Assembly (NCBI GenBank): GCA_938023905.1
Contig: CALJCO010000011.1
Location: 23,544 to 87,543 of the forward strand
DNA from: an uncultured Collinsella sp.
GTDB lineage: Bacteria > Actinomycetota > Coriobacteriia > Coriobacteriales > Coriobacteriaceae
Direction: 5' to 3'
Length of the DNA: 64,000 bases
In this document: positions 1 through 12,053 of the stretch, piece by piece
Layout: each line of letters starts with the position of its first letter
Position numbering within the stretch: the first letter of the stretch is position 1
Notes under the pieces: generated by a model
What the model was told of the DNA's origin: nothing
What the model saw: only the letters and a program-made list of their open reading frames with translations
Database searches by the model: none
Made by a program: the position numbers and the translations under genes

Positions 1-477
1 CCCGGCTCCCAAGACATACCGGCATGGAAAACCACCGGCTTGTTATAGCGCTCGCACAGTTCGTAAAGCGGCTCGGCCACAGCATCATCGGGGGCAAAAC
101 CCTGCTTTGCAGGATGCAGGCAAAGCCCCTTTGCCCCCAACTCGGTAAAGGCGCGCTCCAATTCGTCTGCGGCACCGCTCACCTGCGGGTCTACGCTCGC
201 AAATCCCCACAGACGATCGGGATGTGCGGCAACCAGCATGGCAATCTGGTCATTGGTGCCAAAGTGCCCTCCGCATGCCGTGGTTACATCGAGCGGCATG
301 AGCACGCTCTTCTGCACATCGCAGACGTCCATCTCGACTTGAAGCTCATCCCAATCCATGGGGCCCATATGCCCCATACCAAATTCTCGTGACCAAAAAC
401 CGAATCCATCAGGCTCATCACCCGGCGTACAGATCTCGCCGTAGAGCATAGGATGGACCAACATGTCGATAACCATT
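1..477 (-). CDS. amidohydrolase-family protein (TIM-barrel metal-dependent hydrolase, amidohydrolase-2-like); 3' end lies outside the window
   Basis: Minus-strand frame absent from the ORF track because it runs off the window edge. ATG at 477 follows a GGAAAGGAG RBS. Translation MVIDMLVHPMLYGEICTPGDE...CLHPAKQGFAPDD...YNKPVVFHAG looks like an amidohydrolase-2 fold. Last gene of the frl-like operon. Confidence 0.55.
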
Positions 478-503
478 TCGTACTCCTTTCCAGGCATTTG
501 ACC

Positions 504-1304
504 CTAGTACGGCTCAAACGAACCGATCACTCGGGACGACAGCTCAGCGCCCGCCTTCATACACGCCGGAATATCAAGGCCATCGATCACGCCCTTGGTA
601 AACCCGGCGATATACGAGTCGCCGGCACCCACGGTATTAACGACCTTCTCCGCCGGCACGATCCCGCACTCATAGAAGCGCTCACCGTCATAGGCAATGC
701 TTCCCTTCTCGCCAAGCGTGGCAACCGCAACGCGCGGCCCCAATTCCTGCGCGTGACGTACCCAGTCCCGCAGCTCCGGAGTGTCATCTTCAAACGACAT
801 AAATGCGTAGTCAACGTAGGGAAAATGATTCTCGCAGGCATATTCGGGATCCTGGCTGAACACCGAGAAGTCCATAACCACCGTCTTGCCCGCATCATGC
901 CACTCGGGCAGGAGGTCCAAACAATTGCCAAACAGGTCGGTATGAATGATGTCATGCTCTAGGATAAACGCCCGGTCATCTTCATTCGGACGATATGTCT
1001 CCATTACGCCATCGATTGCCTCGAGATGCACGCGATCGACGCCGTCTTTCAATGCCATGAGCATCACCGAGGTGTCGCCATCCTCCACCCGCAGATGAGA
1101 GATATCAAACCCCTCGGCGGCCAGCGCCTCTCTCATCTTGTCTCCGTACTCGTCCTTGCCGACAACCGACACGGCGGATACCGAAACGCCCATTCGTGCA
1201 AGATGGATACCCCAGTCAATGCCATTACCAGTCGGATAGAACACGCCGATGTTTTGATAGACGTCCGCACAGCAAAAACCAGCCGCACACGCTTTAATAC
1301 CCAT
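504..1304 (-). CDS. PfkB-family carbohydrate kinase (fructosamine/fructoselysine-6-kinase-like), paralog 2
   Basis: ORF 504..1316. ATG at 1304 (MGIKACAAG...) with GGAG RBS, the track start is TTG. C-terminal GAGDSY anion-hole motif of the ribokinase/PfkB family. Confidence 0.8.
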   Translation of the reverse strand: MGIKACAAGFCCADVYQNIGVFYPTGNGIDWGIHLARMGVSVSAVSVVGKDEYGDKMREALAAEGFDISHLRVEDGDTSVMLMALKDGVDRVHLEAIDGVMETYRPNEDDRAFILEHDIIHTDLFGNCLDLLPEWHDAGKTVVMDFSVFSQDPEYACENHFPYVDYAFMSFEDDTPELRDWVRHAQELGPRVAVATLGEKGSIAYDGERFYECGIVPAEKVVNTVGAGDSYIAGFTKGVIDGLDIPACMKAGAELSSRVIGSFEPY

Positions 1305-1425
1305 GGTCTTCTCCAATGTTCAAAAGGGGACCCACCACATGGCGAGCCCCCTTTTCGCGTTTCGCTTATTGTTTTGCATCGGCTGTCCAAGGCCTCATAG
1401 CCAGACCGCCGTACGCTTTCTTAAG

Positions 1426-2289
1426 CTATTCGACGATTGGTGCTCCGTGGCCCCAAGAACCTTCCATGCCGCACACGGTCGAGGCAAACCCGGCAGCAAA
1501 GTCGAGCGCGCGCTCGATGGCCTCGGCGCCACCCTCACCACGCTTGGCGAAATCGAGATAGCACATCAAAAACGAGGTGAGGAACGAGTCGCCCGCCCCC
1601 ATGGTGTCCTTCATGTCCGTTACCGGTTTAGCCAGCTGGCGGTAATAACGCTCGCCGTCGTAAGCGATGCAGCCCTCGGCGCCCGCCGTAGCCGACACAA
1701 AACGCGGACCCAGATCCTTCACCCATGCCAGACGCTCGCGAATCTCGTCCTCACTCGCGGCATCCGCCGCACTAAAGAAAGCAAAATCGACATAGGGCGC
1801 AATCTGCTCGTAGTACTCGTCGGTGGAGTCGTCCGAAAAGTCAAAAGAGACCGTGACGCCCGCAGCCTTCAACTTGGGCAGCTCGCGCTCGGTGAAGCAA
1901 TAGTTGCCCGAATGAACCACATCGAACTGCTTCATGTACGAAAGGTCAAAGCGATCGAGAACATAGCGCGCATCGCCACGGATACCGCCCTCGTTGGAGC
2001 CGAGGAAGACACGGTCACCGTCAACGACGGTCACGCGAGCCGCTCCGTTCTCGCCAATCATCTGCTCGCACTTGTCAAGCTCGATACCCTCATCCTCGAG
2101 GCTTGTAATGACATGCTCGGCAGCGGCGTCATTGCCAAAAATGCCCATGTATGCAGAGCGTGCGGCACCGCATTTCTTGGCATAAACGGCGAAGTTCACC
2201 GCATTGCCGCCGGGATACATGGTGTGGATATGCTCGTAGCGATCGACGACGTTGTCGCCAAATCCGAGCGCGTTAACGTTAAATGCCAT
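1426..2289 (-). CDS. PfkB-family carbohydrate kinase (FrlD-like fructosamine kinase), paralog 1
   Basis: 287 aa, GAGDSF motif, similar to the adjacent kinase. The ATG lies 14 nt after the stop of the upstream SIS-domain gene. Confidence 0.8.
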   Translation of the reverse strand: MAFNVNALGFGDNVVDRYEHIHTMYPGGNAVNFAVYAKKCGAARSAYMGIFGNDAAAEHVITSLEDEGIELDKCEQMIGENGAARVTVVDGDRVFLGSNEGGIRGDARYVLDRFDLSYMKQFDVVHSGNYCFTERELPKLKAAGVTVSFDFSDDSTDEYYEQIAPYVDFAFFSAADAASEDEIRERLAWVKDLGPRFVSATAGAEGCIAYDGERYYRQLAKPVTDMKDTMGAGDSFLTSFLMCYLDFAKRGEGGAEAIERALDFAAGFASTVCGMEGSWGHGAPIVE

Positions 2290-2303
2290 GGCCTTTGCCC
2301 CTT

Positions 2304-3272
2304 CTAGTACTCGACAACACCCATATAGCGACGGAAATCGGGATCGTGATCAAACACCTTGCCGCGTGCAGCACGCAGCTCGCAGTTCATGGCGTAGAAC
2401 AGCACCGGGTCCAGATAGGCACGGACGCTCGCCGGCACGGCTTCCATACCGTACTCCTTGGCATCGAGCACCATCAGCGTATCGGTATGCGTCTTAAGGA
2501 ACGCAAGGGCGCGCTCGTCCATGGCACGGCACTCGCTGGAGCCCATCTGCAGGAAGTAAAAAACGCCATCCTGAGTAGCCTCGAAGGGGCCGTGGAAGTA
2601 CTCGGCAGAGTGGATGTAGCTGCAGTGCTGCCACTGCATCTCCATAAGAGAGCAGATAGCGAAACCGTAGGTCTGGCTAAAGTTGGGACCGCTGCCCAGA
2701 ATGTAGAAGAACTCGTGCTCCTGGCAAAGCTTGGCAAAACGATCGCCTAGCTCGGCATTTACCTTCTCACGTGCCGGGGGAAGAATCTTATCCATCTCGG
2801 CGATACCGGCATACATATCGGCAAGATCGGCGTAGCCCTCCTGCTGATCGAGCAGCTCGGCCGCAAGCGACAGCGAAATGCCAGCGGGGACCTCGGCCTG
2901 CGGCACGCCCTCGCCCCACGGGTAGACCCACGTGGTCCACTTGCCGGAGTCAATCTTGGATCCAGCGTTGTCGGTCTGGGCGATCACCGTAGCGCCGGCA
3001 GCAAGGGCAATCTCACAGCCCTCGACGACCTCGGGGGTGTTGCCACTGTGGCTGCAAGCAATGACCAGGGATTTCTCACCCAAGCGGCGCGGGCGCATGA
3101 TATCAAACTCGCGAGCCGTATAGATATACGAAGTGAAGGTGGTTGCCTCGCGCTGCAGAAGCTCATGAGCCGGGATCAAATCGATCATGGAGCCACCGCA
3201 AGCAATCCAGTAGACGCTGTCGAACTTGCCCTTCTCGGCAATTGCCTCTTTGATCAGATCGTGTGCGTTCAT
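2304..3272 (-). CDS. SIS-domain fructosamine-6-phosphate deglycase (FrlB/FraB-like)
   Basis: ORF 2304..3305. ATG at 3272 (MNAHDLIKEAIAEKG) with AAGGAA RBS. Size and domain organisation match FrlB/GlmS-type SIS proteins. Confidence 0.7.
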   Translation of the reverse strand: MNAHDLIKEAIAEKGKFDSVYWIACGGSMIDLIPAHELLQREATTFTSYIYTAREFDIMRPRRLGEKSLVIACSHSGNTPEVVEGCEIALAAGATVIAQTDNAGSKIDSGKWTTWVYPWGEGVPQAEVPAGISLSLAAELLDQQEGYADLADMYAGIAEMDKILPPAREKVNAELGDRFAKLCQEHEFFYILGSGPNFSQTYGFAICSLMEMQWQHCSYIHSAEYFHGPFEATQDGVFYFLQMGSSECRAMDERALAFLKTHTDTLMVLDAKEYGMEAVPASVRAYLDPVLFYAMNCELRAARGKVFDHDPDFRRYMGVVEY

Positions 3273-3334
3273 ATCCAGTTCCTTTCTTGTTTGGTCCGCA
3301 ATCAATGACGTTGGCTGCGTGGCCGATAGTTGGT

Positions 3335-4186
3335 TTAGTCAATCAGATATTTCTCGAATGCGGCCATGTTCTTGGCATCTGCCGCCGCCGGGTCATCGTA
3401 GTAACGCCCGTCCGTGATTTCCTGGCCCAGCATGCCATCGAAACCATGGGCATTAAGCGTGGCGACGAAGGCGTCCATATCGTGCTTGCCATCGCCCCAC
3501 ACCAGATGGCCATACGGGTCACCGTCGATAAAGTGCATCTCGTGAATTGCCCCATCACCAAAGGCGGCAAACCAGTCCTCGAGCGTCTCGCCCGCAACGC
3601 CCATCGCGGTTGTATCAACCATGGGCTGTAAGTACGGGCTCGCGACCTCGTCAATCATGCGCTTCGCATCGGAAACCGTCGTTACAAGGTTGCTCTCCTC
3701 GGGACGCAGGCTTTCCATCGTAAGCACCAGACCGTGCTCGCCGGCATACTCCGCCAGAATGGACAAGTGCTCGCGGCTGCGCTTCCAGGCTTCCTCGCGG
3801 TCCTCGTCCCAGTCGCCCCAGCCCGAGTTGACGGACATACGGTCGCACCCAAGTACCTCGGCAAGCTCAATGCCGTGCTTAAAGTACGCCAGGCTGCGCT
3901 GTTCATGCAGCGGTTTGCGTGCGCAGTACTGCCAAGGATAGACAACATTCTCGGGGCACAGAGTACGATACCTAAGCCCACGGCCTGCAGCCTTTTTCGC
4001 CAGGACCTCAGCCTCAAAGTAGCCCGTGTGGTCGAGCGTCACATGCGGCTCCGCACACCACAGTTCAATGGACTCAAAGCCCAAACGCTGCTGCACATCA
4101 AGGAAATAATCGAGCGACCACATGATGTAGTGGATATTCATGCCCGCAATCTGTTCGCGGCGCAGCGTCGGTTTGGATTCAGACAT
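3335..4186 (-). CDS. sugar phosphate isomerase/epimerase (xylose-isomerase-like TIM barrel; FrlC-like)
   Basis: 283 aa with a strong AAGGAGG RBS. The start sits 1 nt from the stop of the upstream amidohydrolase gene. Size and fold class match FrlC-type epimerases. Confidence 0.7.
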   Translation of the reverse strand: MSESKPTLRREQIAGMNIHYIMWSLDYFLDVQQRLGFESIELWCAEPHVTLDHTGYFEAEVLAKKAAGRGLRYRTLCPENVVYPWQYCARKPLHEQRSLAYFKHGIELAEVLGCDRMSVNSGWGDWDEDREEAWKRSREHLSILAEYAGEHGLVLTMESLRPEESNLVTTVSDAKRMIDEVASPYLQPMVDTTAMGVAGETLEDWFAAFGDGAIHEMHFIDGDPYGHLVWGDGKHDMDAFVATLNAHGFDGMLGQEITDGRYYDDPAAADAKNMAAFEKYLID

Positions 4187-4187
4187 C

Positions 4188-5771
4188 TTATGCCTCCTTA
4201 TTTCGATCGAACACGATTTGTCCGTCCGACATCGTCATATCAACCGAAAGATCGCGTGCGTCGCGATAATCGAGGTCGAACACATCCCGATCGAGCACGC
4301 AGATATCGGCAAGCTTGCCGACCTCAAGCGTACCCAGTTCGTCTTCGCGCATCAGATCGTACGCGCCCCCGGCAGTCCAAGCACGCAAGAGCTCGACAAG
4401 CGTCAGCGCGTTGGCCTCATTCACGGGCAGCCCATCGTCGAAGTATCCACCGCACGCGCTGTAGATTGACTCGCCCAGGCTCGGAATCAGCAGTGGCAAA
4501 TCCGTACCACAGCACACCGTGCATCCGGAATCTTCCATGCCGCGGCGATTCCAGCTATGCAAAAGTCGCGTCTCGCCAATTTGTCGACACATCATCGACA
4601 GGCAGTCCTCGCGCCTGTCCAGCGTCAAAATCTGCGGATAGACCTCGCAAATTCCACCTAACTTGCCAAACTCGACAAGATCGGTCGGGTCAGAGTTCTC
4701 GAGATCGGTAATCGCATGGCGGCGAAGCATCCGTCCATGCTCGTCTCGAGGCAGCGAGGCATAGAGCGCCACGGTGCGGCGAACGGCGCCATCGCCCTGG
4801 CAATGCAAGGAATATCGGAAGCCGTCAGCATCAATTGCACGCAGCTCGTTCTCAATCAGATCCCACTCGGGCTCTTCGACAACCGTCTTGCCGGCAGCTC
4901 CCGCATCGGCCGTGTCCTCATAGGGGTCAATCATCTCGGCAAGCCCCGCCCATACGCCGCGATCGGTCATACGGTTGAAGCCAGAAAAACGAACGAACGG
5001 TCCCCGGAAGCGCTCTCGCGCCTCGCGGGCATATGCCAAATTTGCACCGGCACCCACCGGCTGCGACATCATAGAGACGCGAACCGTCAGCTCACCAGAT
5101 TCCTCACGGCGAGCCATTTCGTCGGCAAAGCCGTAGTAGTCATCAAACGCCATCTCCTTGATGGCGGTAACGCCGCGCTCGTTAAGCATGCTCATGTAGT
5201 CCGAATACCCGGCGCGCACCTCGGGTAGCGCGAGGAAATCGCTCATCATGCGCCAGATCTTCTCGGCATAGCACGCCTGGGGTGTAAAGCCGTATCGCGC
5301 ACTGGCGGCAGCATTGAGAACGCAGGTCTCCGCACCCGGTGTAAAGCAGACGACAGGGATATCGCCAAAACAATCGTCAAACACAGCTGCCGTATTTGCG
5401 TTCTCGGCATCCGATGCCAACGTTTCGGGCATGTTGTGGCCAAAAGCCGCCGCACAATCCGGATGATCATCTTTCCATGCACGCAAGAGCGACACGGCCT
5501 CTTTGGCATCGGCGACGCCGGATAGATCAGACCCCAACGTCCGCAGCGCCCAGCCCGTATAGAAGGTATGCACATCGATCAGGCCAGGCATGACGGTGCG
5601 GTCGCCCAGGTCAACTACCTCGTCCGCTTGGGTCAAATACGAAGCTACCTCACACTTGGTGCCAACAGCCTCAATTCGATTGCCACGGACCGCTACGAAA
5701 CCTTCAAACGGCAGGTCCCCCGTACCGGTAAAGACGCTCTTAGACGTCAGGACCGTCAAACGATCAGACAT
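4188..5771 (-). CDS. amidohydrolase-3 family (YtcJ-like metal-dependent amidohydrolase)
   Basis: ORF 4188..5780. ATG at 5771 (MSDRLTVL...) with AGGTGG RBS. HTFYTGW motif, 527 aa. Its stop abuts the FrlC-like start. Confidence 0.7.
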   Translation of the reverse strand: MSDRLTVLTSKSVFTGTGDLPFEGFVAVRGNRIEAVGTKCEVASYLTQADEVVDLGDRTVMPGLIDVHTFYTGWALRTLGSDLSGVADAKEAVSLLRAWKDDHPDCAAAFGHNMPETLASDAENANTAAVFDDCFGDIPVVCFTPGAETCVLNAAASARYGFTPQACYAEKIWRMMSDFLALPEVRAGYSDYMSMLNERGVTAIKEMAFDDYYGFADEMARREESGELTVRVSMMSQPVGAGANLAYAREARERFRGPFVRFSGFNRMTDRGVWAGLAEMIDPYEDTADAGAAGKTVVEEPEWDLIENELRAIDADGFRYSLHCQGDGAVRRTVALYASLPRDEHGRMLRRHAITDLENSDPTDLVEFGKLGGICEVYPQILTLDRREDCLSMMCRQIGETRLLHSWNRRGMEDSGCTVCCGTDLPLLIPSLGESIYSACGGYFDDGLPVNEANALTLVELLRAWTAGGAYDLMREDELGTLEVGKLADICVLDRDVFDLDYRDARDLSVDMTMSDGQIVFDRNKEA

Positions 5772-5780
5772 CACAACCAC

Positions 5781-7244
5781 CTACATCGGAAGCATGCCAG
5801 AGATTGCCGTTACGATCAGGCCAAAGACGACCATGAAAATGAAGAACTTCCAAATGGTCTTCCACCATTGGCCAAACGAAATCTTAGCCACGGCAAGGCC
5901 GGCGACCGTCATGCCCGCCACGGGACTGATGGTGTTGATGGTCTGATTAGCAAACTGGAGCGCGGTAACGGCTGCCTCGGGATTGAGGCCCATAAGCTCG
6001 GTCAGGGGGCCCATAACAGGCATGGTGAGCGCCGCCAGGCCAGAACTCGAGGGAACCAGCAAAGAGAGCAGGCCAAGGACGATATACATAAACGTGGTGT
6101 AGACGGCGGCGGGTGCACCGGCGAGCGCAGTAGCGAGCGCCTGGAGGATGGTGTCGATGATCATGCCGCCCTCGGCGATGACCAGAATACCGCGAGCGAT
6201 ACCAATAACGATGGCAGCGTACGCAAAGTCGGCGAGACCCTTAACGAACTCCTCAGCGATCGTCTGCTGGTCAAGACCGCCCAGGATACCGGCAAGCAAG
6301 CCCATGCCAAGGAACACGGCGGAAATCTCATTCATGTACCAGCCCTGGGTAACAAGACCCCAGACGATAATGCCCATACCGCAAGCAAAATCGATAAGCA
6401 CGAGCTTCTGACGGATAGTGAACTCTTCCTCAATGGAGGCATCGGTCACGGAAAACTCGATACGCTTGAGCTTATCGTCCTCATACGTAATGGACGACTC
6501 GGGGTTTTTCTTGACGCGCATGGCGTAGCGCATGGCCCATGCGATACCGACGGCAGTGAAGATGACCCAAGAAACGGCGCGCAGCCACAGTTGCGGATTG
6601 CCCTCGATGCCAATGATGCCTTGGGCGATCAAAACATTAAACGGGTCGATGGTCGAGGCACAATATCCCAGGTTAGGGCCAAGGAAGCAGATGATGAATG
6701 CCGTCATCGAGTCATAACCGATACCCATCATGATGGGAATGAAGATGGCATAGAACGGCAGGGCTTCCTCAGACATACCAAACGTAGTGCCGCAAATGGA
6801 CAGCAACGTCATCGTGATGGGAATGATGAGGATGTCCTTGTTCTTAAGCTTTTTAATCACACGGCTCATGCCGGCATTCAAAGCGTTGGTCTTGGTGATG
6901 ATTGCGAACGACCCGCCAATCAATAAGACGAACGCAACGACGTCGGCAGCCTCCTGGATGCCCTTAGTGGGCGCTTGCAGGACCGCGAAGATATCCTGCC
7001 CCAGATTGATGGTCTCGCCGGTCTCGGAATCGGTGTAGTTCTTATCGACCTGTTCATAGGTTCCAGCAACGGCGACTTCACGCTCGCCCGCCGCTGTCGA
7101 AATCGTCTTGCGCTGATACTGACCAGAGGGAACGATCCAAGTCAAGACCGCAAAGACAACGATCAGCAAGAACATGATCGTATAGACATGCGGTAATTTG
7201 AACTTAAAACGTCTGTTTGTCTTCTTCGCCTTCGTATCTGACAT
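5781..7244 (-). CDS. YfcC-family membrane transporter (putative basic amino acid / amino-sugar conjugate permease)
   Basis: ORF 5781..7304. Real start at ATG 7244 (MSDTKAKKTNRRFK...) with GGAGG RBS. Polytopic, about 487 aa, resembles the YfcC/C4-dicarboxylate-anaerobic-carrier superfamily. Confidence 0.65.
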   Translation of the reverse strand: MSDTKAKKTNRRFKFKLPHVYTIMFLLIVVFAVLTWIVPSGQYQRKTISTAAGEREVAVAGTYEQVDKNYTDSETGETINLGQDIFAVLQAPTKGIQEAADVVAFVLLIGGSFAIITKTNALNAGMSRVIKKLKNKDILIIPITMTLLSICGTTFGMSEEALPFYAIFIPIMMGIGYDSMTAFIICFLGPNLGYCASTIDPFNVLIAQGIIGIEGNPQLWLRAVSWVIFTAVGIAWAMRYAMRVKKNPESSITYEDDKLKRIEFSVTDASIEEEFTIRQKLVLIDFACGMGIIVWGLVTQGWYMNEISAVFLGMGLLAGILGGLDQQTIAEEFVKGLADFAYAAIVIGIARGILVIAEGGMIIDTILQALATALAGAPAAVYTTFMYIVLGLLSLLVPSSSGLAALTMPVMGPLTELMGLNPEAAVTALQFANQTINTISPVAGMTVAGLAVAKISFGQWWKTIWKFFIFMVVFGLIVTAISGMLPM

Positions 7245-7304
7245 AGATACCTCCAAAGAACTCGAGACTGCATCGCATCTCGCTTCAACGTTTGCACAAG
7301 ACAA

Positions 7305-7323
7305 ACGTTCTATGACGTTCTAT
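7305..7323 (-). promoter_or_regulatory. tandem 10-bp direct repeat ACGTTCTAT(G/A) x2 in the promoter region of the frl-like operon; candidate operator for the GntR regulator
   Basis: Exact 9/10 tandem repeat about 60-80 bp upstream of the transporter start codon. Contains a GT..TA..AC-like core. Confidence 0.3.
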
Positions 7324-7419
7324 AGGTTACCAGCAGCTTTTCTCGCCATCAAGATAATTTCAAACTGATTGCCGCAACGCGGTTGAACGGTTGCGTTTGC
7401 GCCGTGAACGGTATGGAAA

Positions 7420-7445
7420 CGCCCGGTGAGATGATCCACCGGGCG
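7420..7445 (-). terminator. hairpin CGCCCGGTG-N8-CACCGGGCG followed by TTTCC on the minus strand; weak intrinsic terminator after the GntR gene
   Basis: Perfect 9-bp stem immediately downstream of the regulator stop codon (7463). Confidence 0.4.
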
Positions 7446-7462
7446 CTTTCATACGCAATGTC

Positions 7463-8206
7463 CTAGATGTCAAAAACGTAGCGAGACCCAACGATCCGCT
7501 GACGACCGATGATAAACGGCCGCCGCTGCTCGTCGAAAAAGAAGGCTTCCATATAAAACAAGGGTTCGCCAACGGGAACTGCCAACAACCGAGCGACCTC
7601 GGGCGACGCACACGCGATCTCAAGCGTGCATGGGTCGGTAAACGCGGGCGTGCGGCCCGTCCGGTTGCGCACGAACTCAAAAATGGATTGGTTAGATAGA
7701 GGTGCCGTTGATAGATAGGCGTTGTCCTCGTAAACATATATGTTGTTCTCGAGCATGACAGGGACGCCATCGGCAGTACGCACGCGCTCAACGCAGATCA
7801 AGTCAGTTCCAACGGGAACACCAAAGAACTGTGCTTCGGTGGAATCCGCCGGCAGCATCTTTCTCGAAATGACACGCGCCCCCGGTTCCATTCCGTTAAC
7901 GCGGCATGCGTCCGAAAAACTCTGGACGTCATCCTTCTGGCGAATCTTGCGCTTGAGCTTGGGGGCATTGACAAACGTGCCTTTCCCCTGTCGCTTCGTT
8001 AGATAACCCTGTTGGACGAGCTCCTCAATAGCGCGTCGCACGGTAACGCGGCCAACTTTATAGCTCTCAGCCAATTCGAATTCGTTGGGTATCCGCGCAC
8101 CTGCCTTGTAGGCACCGGAGTTGATTTCGTTTTTGATGATATCGATAACCTGTTGGTACAGCGGTATCGCTGCTTTACCGTCAGTTAGCCCTTCAGTCGG
8201 TGGCAT
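7463..8206 (-). CDS. GntR/HutC-family transcriptional regulator (FrlR/FraR-like) with UTRA effector domain
   Basis: Winged-HTH N-terminus (...IPNEFELAESYKVGRVTVRRAIEELVQQGYL), 247 aa. ATG at 8206 with GGAG RBS. Confidence 0.85.
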   Translation of the reverse strand: MPPTEGLTDGKAAIPLYQQVIDIIKNEINSGAYKAGARIPNEFELAESYKVGRVTVRRAIEELVQQGYLTKRQGKGTFVNAPKLKRKIRQKDDVQSFSDACRVNGMEPGARVISRKMLPADSTEAQFFGVPVGTDLICVERVRTADGVPVMLENNIYVYEDNAYLSTAPLSNQSIFEFVRNRTGRTPAFTDPCTLEIACASPEVARLLAVPVGEPLFYMEAFFFDEQRRPFIIGRQRIVGSRYVFDI

Positions 8207-8232
8207 ATACCCTCTCCAAGCACAATTAAGTC

Positions 8233-8272
8233 TAAAACGGGCTTAAGGGCATTCAACAAGTCCTTAAGCCCG
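8233..8272 (-). terminator. intrinsic terminator (11-bp stem CGGGCTTAAGG/CCTTAAGCCCG + T-tract) after the HAD hydrolase gene
   Basis: Perfect stem followed by TTTTA on the minus strand. Confidence 0.6.
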
Positions 8273-8356
8273 CATTAGCTTAAAGTATGCTAGGTGTCGC
8301 ACCAAAATGTCGGCTATTTACTCATCAGACCCGAAAAACGCGCAACTACCGCGCTC

Positions 8357-9064
8357 CTAAGAAAGCGTGAGCAGCTCCGGCAGCTGATCGATGATCTTGT
8401 CCGCGGCATCCTGGCTAAAGCCAAAGCGCTCCTCGCGCTTGGCAATGACCGTCAGGCCGGCACGCTTGCCGGCAGTGATGCCAGGCACCGAATCCTCAAC
8501 GCAGCAGCAACGGACCGCAGGCAGCCCCAACAGGTCCAGCGCATGCAGGTAGATGTCGGGCTCGGGCTTGCTCTCCTTAAACTGCTCGCCGCTCACCACA
8601 TACTCAAAGGCATCCGACAGCCCGCATGCATTGAGCACTTCCTCGATGCTATCCATGGGAGACGAGCTGGCAAGCGCCACGCGAACGCCGCGGCGCGGCA
8701 GCTCGCGAATCGTATCCACAGCGCCCGGGTTAATCAAAGCCTGGTAGTCACGCGGACGCTTATGCGCCCACTCGTCCCAACGGGCCAATGCTTCCTCGCC
8801 AGTGAAGTGCCCTTTACCGGCGCGCTCAAACCAATCGACCAGCATATGCAGGAAGAACTGATGTGAGGTACCAACCTGCCCGTTCAACTCCTCTTGGGTC
8901 AGATTCAACCCAAGCTCCTTGGCAAACGCGGCAGTCTCGCCCAGGTAGTAATACTCGGTATCGACAATGACGCCGTCCATGTCAAAGATAACGGCGTCGA
9001 ACGGAAATGCGGACACGGCACCCTCCCTAGCAAAAGGGCGCCCGCAAGCGGACGCCCGAACCAT
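8357..9064 (-). CDS. HAD-IA family hydrolase (beta-phosphoglucomutase-like phosphatase)
   Basis: DMDGVIVDTE motif I, 235 aa. Confidence 0.75.
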   Translation of the reverse strand: MVRASACGRPFAREGAVSAFPFDAVIFDMDGVIVDTEYYYLGETAAFAKELGLNLTQEELNGQVGTSHQFFLHMLVDWFERAGKGHFTGEEALARWDEWAHKRPRDYQALINPGAVDTIRELPRRGVRVALASSSPMDSIEEVLNACGLSDAFEYVVSGEQFKESKPEPDIYLHALDLLGLPAVRCCCVEDSVPGITAGKRAGLTVIAKREERFGFSQDAADKIIDQLPELLTLS

Positions 9065-9079
9065 GCACTATCGGCGATT

Positions 9080-9922
9080 CTAACCCAGCAGTTGGTCAAG
9101 TGCTACCGCGATACCGTCTTCGTTGTTGTTGGCGGTCACCATCTGGGCCACGGCCTTGACTTCATCGACAGCGTTACCCATGGCGACGCCGGTACCAGCC
9201 CACTCGATCATGGGCTTGTCGTTCTGGCCGTCGCCAAACGAGACGACCTCGCTGGCATCGATGCCGAGCTTGGGCAGGGCACCCTCGAGCGCGCGGGCCT
9301 TGTCGATACCGGGCGCCGTGTACTCAAAGTACCAGTCAGCCGTAAACATGCCCGAAAGCGTCTGCTTAAAGGGCGCATACATCTCCTCGTGATGCGCCTG
9401 CAGGTAGGTCGGATCGCCCGCCGTCAGCAGCTTGTCCACGGGATAAGCATCAGCGACCTCATGCAGGCTCTCCACCTCGCGAATCTTAAGATCGCACGCG
9501 TCGCGCTCATACTTGACGATATTCTTCTGCGAGCCGTCAGGCAGCGTGATCATGCAATGGTACGAGTCCTCGACGTGCAAATCGCGACCAAGCGAAATCA
9601 TAGGGATCACGTCAAAATTACGCAGGTGATCAATCAGGCGATGCAATTCGTCGGCAGGCATAGCCTGATCGAACAGCACCTCGTCGGTCTGGGCATCGAC
9701 CACATGCGCGCCATTAAAGGCAACTAGCAGACCGTCATGGTTTTGAAGGTCGAGCTCCTGCGCCAAGGCGTGCAGCCCCCATGCGGGACGGCCCGAAGCC
9801 AAGATGAGCTTAATGCCCGACTCCTGCGCCGCGAGCAGTTTCTCGCGCGTACGCGGGCTGATCACCTTCTGGTCGTTGGTGAGCGTACCGTCGATATCCA
9901 TTGCGATGGCTTTGATTGCCAT
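9080..9922 (-). CDS. Cof-type HAD-IIB sugar phosphatase
   Basis: ORF 9080..10108. ATG at 9922 (MAIKAIAMDIDGTL...) with GGGAGG RBS. C-terminal GDGQNDKPM motif. Confidence 0.75.
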   Translation of the reverse strand: MAIKAIAMDIDGTLTNDQKVISPRTREKLLAAQESGIKLILASGRPAWGLHALAQELDLQNHDGLLVAFNGAHVVDAQTDEVLFDQAMPADELHRLIDHLRNFDVIPMISLGRDLHVEDSYHCMITLPDGSQKNIVKYERDACDLKIREVESLHEVADAYPVDKLLTAGDPTYLQAHHEEMYAPFKQTLSGMFTADWYFEYTAPGIDKARALEGALPKLGIDASEVVSFGDGQNDKPMIEWAGTGVAMGNAVDEVKAVAQMVTANNNEDGIAVALDQLLG

Positions 9923-10159
9923 ATATGCCTCCCTGTCATTGAGCAACCTTGTCTGAGCCATCATACAGAACACCCACGGCGGCGCTGTTTGCAACGGAAA
10001 AAATGTCATATTGTCCCAAACATGAACGGCGTGCCTTCGACGATTGCGATGCCCGTCGAGGCGCCTCCCGATACATTCCATTCTATCCAGATAGCAAAGG
10101 GCCCGCATCCCAACGGATACGGGCCCTTGTCGGCTATGCGTTAGTTTTCGCAGCGAATC

Positions 10160-11854
10160 CTACTTACGGTGCGCGCGATAGAACTCGATGAGCGCCTGGG
10201 TCGAAGCGTCCTGCTCGGCCTTGGCGGCGTCGTCGTGGAAGGCAGGGGTGATCTGCTTGGCAAGCTGCTTGCCCAGCTCAACGCCCCACTGGTCGTAGGA
10301 GTCGATGCCCCAGACCGTACCCTCGACAAACGTGATGTGCTCGTACAGGGCGATGAGCTCGCCAAGCGCGAACGGGGTCAGCGTGTCGCCAAAGATCGAG
10401 GTCGTCGGACGGTTGCCCTCAAAGCAGCGAGCCGGGACGATCTGCTCGGGCGTGCCCTCGGCGCGCACCTCATCGGCCGTCTTGCCAAAGGCGAGCGCCT
10501 TGGTCTGGGCCAGGAAGTTGCCCAGGAACAGCTCGTGCACGTCCTGGCCGTTGTCGGTTGCAGGGTTGGCGGTGTTGGCGAAGGCGATGAAGTCGGCCGG
10601 AACCACCACGGTGCCCTGGTGCAGCAGCTGGTAGAAGGCATGCTGGCCGTTGGTGCCGGGCTCGCCCCAGAAGATTTCACCGGTGTCGGAGGTCACGGCG
10701 CTGCCGTCCCAGCGGACATGCTTGCCGTTGGACTCCATGGTGAGCTGCTGCAGGTAGGCCGGGAAACGGTGCAGATACTGGCAGTACGGAAGCACGGCGT
10801 GGCTCTTGGAACCGAAGAAGTTGACGTACCAGACGTTGAACAAACCCATCAGCGCGACGGCATTGTTCTCGAGCGGCGTGTTGCAGAAGTACTCGTCGAT
10901 GGCGTGGAAGCCCTCAAGGAACTGCTGGAAACGCTCGGGGCCGAGCACGACGATCAGCGACAGGCCCACGGCGGAGTCGACGGAGTAGCGGCCGCCGACC
11001 CAGTTCCAAAAACCAAAGGCGTTAGCCGGGTCGATACCGAAAGCCTCGACCTTCTCGAGTGCGGTGGAAACGGCGACGAAGTGCTTTGCCACAGCCTCGG
11101 CGTTCTGCTCATCGGAGCCATCGATGGCGCCCTGAGCCTTGAGCTGCTCGAGCATCCAGGTCTTGACCTCGCGGGCGTTGGTGAGGGTCTCGAGCGTGGT
11201 GAAGGTCTTGGAGACGATGATCACGAGCGTGGTCTCGGGATCCAAACCCTTGAGCTTCTCGGCCTGGTCGTTGGGGTCGATGTTGGAGATATAGCGGCAG
11301 TCGATACCGGCGTCGGCATAGGGGCGCAGAGCCTCGTAAGCCATGACCGGGCCCAGATCGGAGCCGCCGATGCCGATGGACACCAGGTGCTCGATCTTCT
11401 TGCCGGTAACGCCCTTCCACTCACCGGAGCGCACGCGCTCGGCGAAAGCATACATGCGATCGAGGACCTCGTGCACGTCGGCGACGACGTCCTGGCCGTC
11501 AACGATGAGCTGGCCTTTCTCGCTCGCCGGACGGCGCAGCGCGGTGTGCAGGACGGCGCGGTCCTCGGTGGTGTTGATGTGCTCGCCGGAGAACATGGCG
11601 TCGCGGCGCTCCTCGAGCTTCACCTCGCGGGCAAGATCGCACAGCAGCTTGACGGTCTCGTCGGTCACCAGGTTCTTGGACAGATCGAAATGCAGGTCAC
11701 CGGCGTCAAAGCTCAGCTTGTTCACGCGCTCGGCATCGGCGGCGAACCAGGCCTTGAGGTCGATACCTTCGGCCTCGAGCTTCTCCTGATGAGCCTCGAG
11801 CGCCTTCCAAGCGGCAGTCGACGTAGCATCGATAGGTGCGGCAACAGTTGCCAT
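10160..11854 (-). CDS. pgi: glucose-6-phosphate isomerase
   Basis: ORF 10160..11881. ATG at 11854 ([22 protein letters not shown]...) with GGAGG RBS. Full-length PGI, about 564 aa. Confidence 0.9.
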
Positions 11855-12053
11855 AGAGTCCTCCTCAGCATACGAGCGCACGCCTCCATGCGCCCGGACA
11901 TTCAGATGCCACTATTCTAGCGCAGGTCAAGACTATAATCAGCGAGCGTTGCCAATCGGCCCCCAAACGGCAACCGACCAAAAAGGGACAGGTTTAATTT
12001 GGCAGGTCAAACGCTTTACCAATCAAAAATAACCTATCCCTTTATGCCAAATA

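Follow-up and report, generated by a model that had tools for sequence, protein, structure and literature searches.

Which enzymes might allow a common gut bacterium to feed on the Amadori compounds (fructosamines) of the human diet is the question raised by a gene cluster at the start of a 64,000-nucleotide (nt) stretch of DNA from an uncultured Collinsella sp. (assembly GCA_938023905.1, contig CALJCO010000011.1, positions 23,544 to 87,543; the whole stretch is hereafter the window). Cooked and dried foods are rich in Amadori compounds, which reach the colon, and one of them, fructose-asparagine, is known as a "private nutrient" of Salmonella. Which gut bacteria use which of these compounds shapes the microbiota, and bacteria of the Collinsella aerofaciens group are very common in humans. 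A preliminary description of the window had proposed a fructosamine operon of unusual composition. Our analysis makes it reasonably probable that the cluster serves Amadori-compound catabolism, as a hybrid of the known fra and frl systems that is extended by uncharacterised enzyme families. The reference loci for this comparison were frlABCDR of Escherichia coli K-12 and the fra locus of a Salmonella IncHI1A plasmid, which is annotated with fraB and fraE and encodes a FraB at 92% identity to the crystallised protein.

All eight co-directional genes of the preliminary description are present on the minus strand between window positions 1 and 8206 (Table 1), and Pfam and NCBIfam agree with the families given there. 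Gene models were compared with those of a metagenome contig (L001), on which the seven complete proteins of the window cluster are 100% identical; for the FrlD-like kinase, gene callers use an ATG start, while a TTG start would give 270 amino acids (aa). With the L001 start calls, the gaps between catabolic genes are approximately 9, 1, 62, 14, 121, and 27 nt, so that the genes are tightly packed, as had been described, but never truly overlap. The gaps on either side of the Amidohydro_3 gene (approximately 9 nt to the carrier gene and 1 nt to the epimerase gene) suggest translational coupling. The extent of the unit had been underestimated: the window edge cuts the Amidohydro_2 gene (286 aa in full), and on L001 this is followed by genes for YjbQ/UPF0047 (142 aa), BtpA/SgcQ (269 aa), and an FGGY-family kinase (505 aa) at intervals of 2, 33, and 6 nt, and then by a convergent TatD gene. 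Since L001 shows three genes past the window edge, the full unit consists of the regulator and ten catabolic genes, and it is modular, as discussed below.

The putative fructosamine-6-phosphate deglycase is a double-SIS protein whose best NCBIfam match is FrlB (expect value [E], 1e-31), far ahead of GlmS, AgaS-type, and NagB-II families (the next family at 4e-7, the others at that value or worse). Its score against the FrlB model (NF008481) is 110 bits for a cut-off of 430, which makes it a homolog that lies outside the equivalog. A PDB sequence search returned 3EUA (193 bits), 9OTJ (190 bits), and 2A3N/8GLR (114 bits), which are FrlB of Bacillus subtilis, FraB of Salmonella, and FrlB of Salmonella, respectively (PMC12359202). 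BLASTP gave the same order, with 36% identity to both FraB (192 bits) and B. subtilis FrlB (194 bits), and 29% to E. coli FrlB (117 bits). In the HMMER alignment with 9OTJ, residues E211, H227, and P229 align with E214, H230, and P232 of FraB, where E214 and H230 are the essential base and acid of an enzyme that acts on 6-phospho-fructose-aspartate (PMC12359202). The C-terminal RRYMxxVEY tail of FraB is also kept. Judged by its sequence, the protein belongs to the clade that holds FraB and B. subtilis FrlB.

Profile searches likewise place both PfkB kinases in the FrlD/FraD group rather than with ribokinase, just as the SIS protein falls with FrlB/FraB rather than with GlmS or AgaS; both placements had been proposed in the preliminary description, and the outcome that it had named as a refutation, a position outside these clades, did not occur. 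Each kinase matches the fructoselysine 6-kinase model (FrlD, NF007321; cut-off, 247 bits) best. The kinase encoded next to the deglycase scores 186.9 bits (E, 1e-55; next family, 1e-13) and is closer to FraD (39% identity, 185 bits) than to E. coli FrlD (122 bits), whereas the second scores 264.5 bits, above the cut-off (E, 1e-79; next family, 7e-19), and is closer to E. coli FrlD (33%, 145 bits) than to FraD (24%, 81 bits). One kinase is thus already nameable, in that the Prokaryotic Genome Annotation Pipeline model would label it "fructoselysine 6-kinase." The two kinases share 31% identity. Because of this low identity and their different best matches, the recent duplication implied by the earlier wording is ruled out, although the presence of two PfkB kinases stands; by these comparisons they are old paralogs from different subfamilies. 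The ortholog of the FraD-like kinase is the sole kinase of the Olsenella cluster and the one retained in minimal clusters generally.

The xylose-isomerase-like barrel scores 94.7 bits against its best NCBIfam match, FrlC (NF007360; E, 7e-27; cut-off, 305), followed by a D-psicose 3-epimerase model (E, 1e-10), and is 27% identical to E. coli FrlC. It is a candidate for a distant FrlC-like ketosamine or ketose 3-epimerase, present as two paralogs in Clostridial clusters (Caproiciproducens sp. R1 and a Ruminiclostridium sufflavum-like contig have two each) and absent from Olsenella. PDB sequence searches with both kinases and this protein found no close solved relative. The GntR/HutC regulator is closer to FraR (34% identity, 130 bits) than to E. 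coli FrlR (28%, 91 bits) by BLASTP.

The distribution of the cluster was assessed in loci sampled by way of Amidohydro_3 or BtpA anchors. A set of 87 loci (80 of them from a metagenome scan) was scored with the proteins of the window, of E. coli, and of Salmonella as tblastn queries and grouped into lineages at 90% Amidohydro_3 identity. Coriobacterium, Olsenella, Caproiciproducens, Ruminiclostridium, and many metagenome contigs share the gene set, with Amidohydro_3 homologs at 44 to 60% identity in the four named genomes, so that the synteny comparison called for in the preliminary description supports a conserved unit. Coriobacterium glomerans has the same eleven genes in the same order, while Olsenella uli has a minimal set of regulator, carrier, Amidohydro_3, SIS protein, and FraD-like kinase. 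In every one of the 18 lineages with flanks of 5 kb or more, an FrlB/FraB-type SIS protein and a fructosamine-type kinase lie within 10 kb of Amidohydro_3. This linkage spans Coriobacteriia and Clostridia and holds whatever carrier lies nearby: DcuC/YfcC is the commonest, an FrlA-type APC permease occurs in one abundant gut Firmicute type and in L093 (FrlA homologs are confined to L093, L113, and the L116–144 type), and L099–L104 have a MatE gene upstream but no recognised carrier. L093 carries a genuine E. coli-type frlA-B-C-D set (47 to 60% identity to the E. coli proteins) beside Amidohydro_3. The gene arrangement seen in the window is far beyond chance, and the two amidohydrolases pointed out in the preliminary description are real and conserved parts of the cluster across loci.

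Across these loci, the genes behave as three modules. The first (M1) comprises the carrier, Amidohydro_3, the SIS deglycase, and the FraD-like kinase, with or without the epimerase. The second (M2) comprises the FrlD-like kinase, Amidohydro_2, and YjbQ, which co-vary almost perfectly, the kinase thus following Amidohydro_2 and YjbQ rather than the deglycase. The third (M3) comprises BtpA and the FGGY kinase, often together with a Cof-type HAD phosphatase. In L120, M2 and BtpA form a separate operon (BtpA-HAD-kinase-Amidohydro_2-YjbQ-MatE), with Amidohydro_3 and FGGY paired; in the Ruminiclostridium sufflavum-like contig, BtpA-FGGY-HAD is divergently transcribed. Loci found from the BtpA side (homologs at 53 to 65% identity) had the same neighbourhood in three of three cases.

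The carrier and the Amidohydro_3 protein set the cluster apart from the described systems. As the preliminary description had noted, the carrier is of a different kind: it scores 371 bits against DcuC (PF03606) and 327.9 bits against the NCBIfam YfcC model (NF008611), under the equivalog cut-off of 500, whereas FraA belongs to PF03605 (DcuA/DcuB), so the idea of FraA as a DcuC-type relative of this carrier was rejected. FrlA, an APC permease, had no match in loci of the window type, and FraA had no tblastn match in any of the 87 loci. Orthologs of the carrier in related clusters are 67 to 78% identical, and it is presumed from its position to import the substrate of the cluster. Carriers of the YfcC type have been linked to amino-acid transport.

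The Amidohydro_3 protein passed no NCBIfam model and gave only marginal matches in a PDB sequence search. For its AlphaFold2 model (predicted local distance difference test score [pLDDT], 86.9), the nearest structures are the uncharacterised YtcJ-like Pyrococcus proteins 3IGH and 3ICJ (template modeling [TM] score, 0.70 to 0.78), which share its overall fold and Pfam family at only 18% identity; further matches are generic deaminases, dipeptidases, and chlorohydrolases. The amidohydrolase superfamily is built on a triosephosphate isomerase (TIM) barrel with an H-x-H motif, Lys or Glu on strand 4, two His, and Asp on strand 8. K208, H326, H355, and D427, invariant in a 14-sequence alignment, are the expected ligands on strands 4, 5, 6, and 8. 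Strand 1 reads D-V-H-T-F (residues 69 to 73, H71-T-F73) instead of carrying the usual H-x-H; F73 is invariant, and one homolog (P0015, from a cluster of 1366 members) has Arg instead of His71, which suggests an unusual or reduced metal site. Reading the sequence by eye revealed no evident N-terminal signal peptide. The protein should therefore be cytoplasmic and act after uptake, so any deamidation would follow uptake, in contrast to the periplasmic action of FraE.

The 90%-identity cluster of the Amidohydro_3 protein holds 23,239 member sequences, and the best 80 genomic matches (98 to 99% identity) are all from C. aerofaciens or Collinsella sp. of the human gut, which fixes the host as a Collinsella of the aerofaciens group. 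A 582-aa protein (P0059) combines an AP_endonuc_2 and an Amidohydro_3 domain and matches the window protein at 81% identity across 59% of its length. It has one member sequence, on one contig, and may be an epimerase-amidohydrolase gene fusion or an artefact of assembly or frameshift.

Set against the Salmonella fra locus, the cluster keeps a GntR-family regulator, a FraB-type deglycase, and a FraD-type kinase, and with them the logic of carrier, amide hydrolase, kinase, and deglycase. It differs in its carrier and in lacking the asparaginase FraE (PF00710), for which neither the window cluster nor any of the 87 loci yielded a homolog; the cytoplasmic Amidohydro_3 protein stands in FraE's place, and by analogy we infer that it replaces FraE. 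The Collinsella cluster further adds the FrlC-like epimerase, the second kinase, Amidohydro_2, YjbQ, BtpA, and FGGY. In the Olsenella-type minimal cluster, each part has its counterpart in fraR-A-E-B-D, although the proteins in the A and E positions are non-homologous. From E. coli frl, the cluster shares the FrlC-like barrel, a kinase that passes the FrlD model, and an FrlR-like regulator, but it has no FrlA-type permease, its deglycase falls in the other clade, and it contains six further genes. The B. subtilis frlBONMD-frlP system, also of a Gram-positive host, has a deglycase as near to the window protein as FraB is, but it uses an ABC importer (PMC12632257), and no amidohydrolase, epimerase, YjbQ, BtpA, or FGGY partner is found there.

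On this basis, a pathway can be outlined in which every enzymatic step, like the substrate, is deduced from homology and gene context. The GntR/HutC repressor would act through an operator upstream of the carrier gene, and the DcuC/YfcC-type carrier would bring in the Amadori compound. The cytoplasmic Amidohydro_3 protein would then cut a C-N (amide) bond in the amino-acid part, which is the logical place of FraE. Optionally, the FrlC-like barrel would convert non-fructose ketosamines to the fructose form. The FraD-like kinase would phosphorylate C6, and the FraB-like deglycase would yield glucose-6-phosphate and the free amino acid. Our best guess for the substrates, by analogy with fra, is amide-bearing alpha-glycated amino acids, for example fructose-asparagine and fructose-glutamine, or else their cyclic, N-acyl, or short-peptide forms. 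The amidohydrolase step, and hence an amide-bearing alpha-fructosyl amino acid, is argued for most strongly by the parallel between the Olsenella-type minimal cluster and fraR-A-E-B-D. All of the classes considered in the preliminary description (amide-linked, peptide-linked, otherwise N-substituted, or epimeric) are plausible. Modules M2 and M3, which are separable yet strictly tied to clusters of this kind, probably broaden the range of substrates or act on other ketosamine phosphates or side products.

The alternative that survives best, although we consider it unlikely, is that a glycated di- or tripeptide or an N-acylated fructosamine serves as substrate, with Amidohydro_3 as a peptidase or deacylase that frees the fructosyl amino acid ahead of phosphorylation and deglycation; this is the peptide-linked variant of the preliminary description. 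The structural neighbours of Amidohydro_3 include the Lys/Arg carboxypeptidase Cc2672 and the Xaa-Pro dipeptidases 3N2C and 2QS8, a weak NCBIfam match leads to a Caulobacter Xaa-Pro dipeptidase, and NCBIfam labels YfcC a putative basic amino acid antiporter. However, these structure matches are generic (TM score, approximately 0.5; 13 to 15% identity) and stand among deaminases and chlorohydrolases, the cluster has no peptide transporter, and nothing in the data separates peptide cleavage from side-chain deamidation.

A second possibility, decidedly doubtful, concerns M2 and M3, which could form an SIS-independent route for ketosamines that the deglycase refuses, such as pentose-derived ribulosamines or 3- or 4-epimeric ketosamines. 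A kinase would make the ketosamine phosphate, and BtpA and/or the Amidohydro_2-YjbQ pair would cleave or rearrange it. BtpA has no solved relative in a PDB sequence search. Its structure model (pLDDT, 88) resembles 2-keto-3-deoxy-6-phosphogalactonate aldolase, Kce, PcrB, thiamin-phosphate synthase, and ribulose-phosphate 3-epimerase (TM score, 0.55 to 0.6), and its substrate, judging from these folds, is probably a phosphorylated small molecule. A role for BtpA as a TrpF/HisA-like reverse-Amadori isomerase received no specific support, with TrpF and HisA absent from the top 50 matches. The best PDB relative of Amidohydro_2 is the uncharacterised BB4693 (3IRS; E, 8e-13); the protein lacks an H-x-H motif, and its invariant residues include D4, D63, D96, E157, H186, and D228. 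The best model for the FGGY kinase is xylulokinase (276 bits for a cut-off of 380). The literature that we searched contained nothing linking YjbQ or BtpA/SgcQ with fructosamines. If such a route exists, it would give UPF0047/YjbQ and BtpA/SgcQ their first physiological roles and, in abundant gut bacteria, define deglycating enzymes of a new family.

It is improbable that the cluster is an ordinary frl-type operon for epsilon-fructoselysine or psicoselysine, in which the carrier substitutes for FrlA and the amidohydrolases, YjbQ, BtpA, and FGGY are unrelated neighbours. The FrlC-like epimerase and the kinase above the FrlD equivalog cut-off would fit such an operon, as would the homologs of frlD and frlB already noted in Collinsella spp., among other gut taxa, in a metagenomic survey (PMC9749803) and the accessory genes that stand beside genuine E. 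coli-type frlA-B-C-D in L093 and L120. Against this, FraB, FraD, and B. subtilis FrlB are closer relatives of the deglycase and of the kinase kept in minimal clusters than are FrlB and FrlD of E. coli, and their clade includes the FraB enzyme discussed above and the B. subtilis pathway, which favours alpha-glycated amino acids (PMC12632257). Moreover, genes with unrelated functions would hardly account for a linkage of Amidohydro_3 that holds in 18 of 18 lineages from two phyla and several types of cluster, and BtpA-FGGY and the main operon have a common candidate operator motif. Finally, a non-Maillard cluster for another amino sugar, an opine-like ketosamine, or a rare ketose, with the SIS protein as an AgaS/NagB-II-like isomerase or deaminase, would suit the sub-cut-off core proteins, the broader sugar-phosphate chemistry suggested by two extra sugar kinases, the phosphate-binding barrel BtpA, and sugar-phosphate phosphatases, and the D-psicose 3-epimerase match, but it is very improbable given the distance of the SIS protein from those families, its retained catalytic Glu-His pair and C-terminal tail, and the E-values of both PfkB kinases, for which FrlD leads by about 40 orders of magnitude or more.

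Several points weigh against Amadori-compound catabolism by a fra/frl hybrid as set out above. The deglycase, the epimerase, and the first kinase all fall below NCBIfam equivalog cut-offs. Amidohydro_3 has no characterised close relative, and its hydrolase activity is only presumed, given the H-x-F motif and the homolog with Arg at position 71. The proposed substrate is a guess. One strain of C. aerofaciens, in contrast to C. intestinalis, reportedly did not consume epsilon-fructoselysine, which, if correct, would count against fructoselysine and not against other Amadori compounds. The genes may belong to two or three transcription units instead of a single transcript, as hairpins in the sequence suggest, and the operator motif is degenerate in the window, with 2 mismatches, while the loci of Coriobacterium and Olsenella gave no match to it.

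The hairpins and motifs behind the last two points are as follows. A 218-nt spacer that contains a strong hairpin and the candidate operator separates the regulator, probably its own transcription unit, from the carrier gene; the hairpin lies directly 3' of the regulator gene (stem, 7421 to 7444; −29.8 kcal/mol; z, −5.2). The 121-nt spacer between the kinase genes (1305 to 1425) folds as a whole at −49.9 kcal/mol (z, −5.3), and its terminator-like hairpin sits at the junction of an optional five-gene block described below. The short gaps between genes favour one transcript from the carrier gene to the FGGY gene, but these two strong structures speak against it, and a single transcript is not established. 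In Clostridial loci, the perfect 12-bp palindrome TATAACGTTATA occurs immediately upstream of the Amidohydro_3 or carrier operon, often as paired sites with a 10-bp spacing. The GntR-BtpA spacers of L011 and L135, upstream of divergent BtpA-FGGY operons, contain it as well, which places BtpA-FGGY in the same predicted regulon. In loci with 62 to 65% G+C, it is present where approximately 0.1 matches per locus would be expected by chance. The palindrome is likely the operator of the GntR/HutC regulator of the cluster, as predicted from its placement. In the window, the first 12-mer of the tandem ATAGAACGT motif departs from TATAACGTTATA at 2 positions, and co-regulation in Collinsella through this motif would follow by extension from the Clostridial loci. 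No Rfam family, riboswitch, or other known RNA matched in window positions 1 to 12000, and a scan for sigma-70 and terminator consensus sequences gave matches at the level of shuffled sequence and was uninformative.

Within Collinsella, the cluster occurs in two forms. Among 19 well-flanked contigs, 12 carry the long form and 7 a short form without the FrlD-like kinase, Amidohydro_2, YjbQ, BtpA, and FGGY, in which Amidohydro_3 is 98% identical. Homology of the short form (L138, L145, L146, L152, L153, and L174–L177, compared with L001) breaks off precisely with the stop codon of the FraD-like kinase and sets in again approximately 22 nt before the end of TatD; in place of the 4.7-kb five-gene block stands approximately 256 nt of unrelated sequence with a hairpin of its own. 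Strains with and without the block offer a natural comparison.

The full-text literature that we searched contained no description of the hybrid fra/frl architecture, an obligate link to Amidohydro_3, the M2 and M3 modules, or the strain-level indel, in keeping with the earlier view of the architecture as undescribed. Given its recurrence in gut bacteria that are unrelated to one another, the cluster probably represents a branch of Amadori metabolism that has not been described. If the proposed pathway is correct, a fra-like commensal pathway with a cytoplasmic amidohydrolase marks likely competitors for nutrients of the fructose-asparagine type, and that amidohydrolase, in the place of FraE, represents a new enzyme step. 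The cluster also provides a testable context for four uncharacterised groups, namely the Amidohydro_3 and Amidohydro_2 subfamilies, YjbQ/UPF0047, and BtpA/SgcQ.

Table 1. Features of the Collinsella cluster in the window and sites of the TATAACGTTATA palindrome in related loci (HTH, helix-turn-helix)
Feature	Location	Strand	Evidence or remark
GntR/HutC regulator (GntR HTH + UTRA), FraR/FrlR-like	7463..8206	-	Pfam GntR, UTRA
Candidate operator, tandem ATAGAACGT motif (TATAGAACGTCATAGAACGTTTGT)	7301..7324	-	~57-80 nt 5' of carrier start codon
DcuC/YfcC-family secondary carrier, 487 aa	5781..7244	-	PF03606, E 1e-110
Amidohydro_3 (YtcJ-like) metal-hydrolase-fold protein, 527 aa	4188..5771	-	PF07969
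FrlC-like xylose-isomerase-like TIM barrel (AP_endonuc_2)	3335..4186	-	PF01261; best NCBIfam match FrlC
Double-SIS putative fructosamine-6-phosphate deglycase	2304..3272	-	Best NCBIfam match FrlB
PfkB kinase, FraD-like, 287 aa	1426..2289	-	Best NCBIfam match FrlD, below cut-off
Terminator-like hairpin between kinase genes, 15-bp stem + U run	1322..1355	-	Folding
PfkB kinase, FrlD-like, 266 aa	504..1304	-	NCBIfam FrlD, above cut-off
Amidohydro_2, N-terminal 158 residues (gene cut by window edge)	1..476	-	PF04909
TATAACGTTATA sites in related loci	L009 9943; L011 7328; L101 9967; L105 8925; L106 9916, 9926
TATAACGTTATA sites in related loci	L107 6951/6961, 8116/8126, 9902/9912; L135 9955, 18971; L117 four sites

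Upstream of the regulator, also on the minus strand, lie genes for a HAD-IA phosphatase (beta-phosphoglucomutase-like; 8357 to 9064, just upstream), a Cof-type HAD-IIB sugar phosphatase (9080 to 10108), and glucose-6-phosphate isomerase (10160 to 11881). The order of glucose-6-phosphate isomerase, HAD, and GntR genes is likewise found in Coriobacterium glomerans. A role of the Cof-type HAD as the phosphatase of the module is unsupported, as it is 22 to 27% identical to the cluster-linked HADs. In L093, an uncalled 700-nt gap of the frl cluster, between the FrlA-like permease and the FrlC-like gene, contains a YjbQ-like stretch (5090 to 5275, minus strand; 34% identity over 65 aa) that is possibly a YjbQ remnant, judged by sequence similarity.

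Complete fra loci (regulator, fraB, kinase, DcuA/B carrier, and fraE) were found on plasmids of Salmonella, Klebsiella pneumoniae, and Enterobacter roggenkampii, with FraB proteins 86 to 92% identical to the crystallised protein. The Salmonella locus L097 is a conjugative IncHI1A plasmid that carries fra (NZ_CP065077.1, 169942 to 182877). Being plasmid-borne, the fructose-asparagine pathway is therefore potentially mobile among Enterobacteriaceae. On one Collinsella contig (L004, 1 to 1881), genes for a TraG/type IV secretion system-coupling protein and a Clp protease stand where glucose-6-phosphate isomerase normally lies upstream of the cluster, and in L180 (15552 to 18794) the whole cluster adjoins relaxase, NikA-like, and AAA_25 genes. 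These neighbours hint, from their sequences, at mobile elements bordering the cluster.

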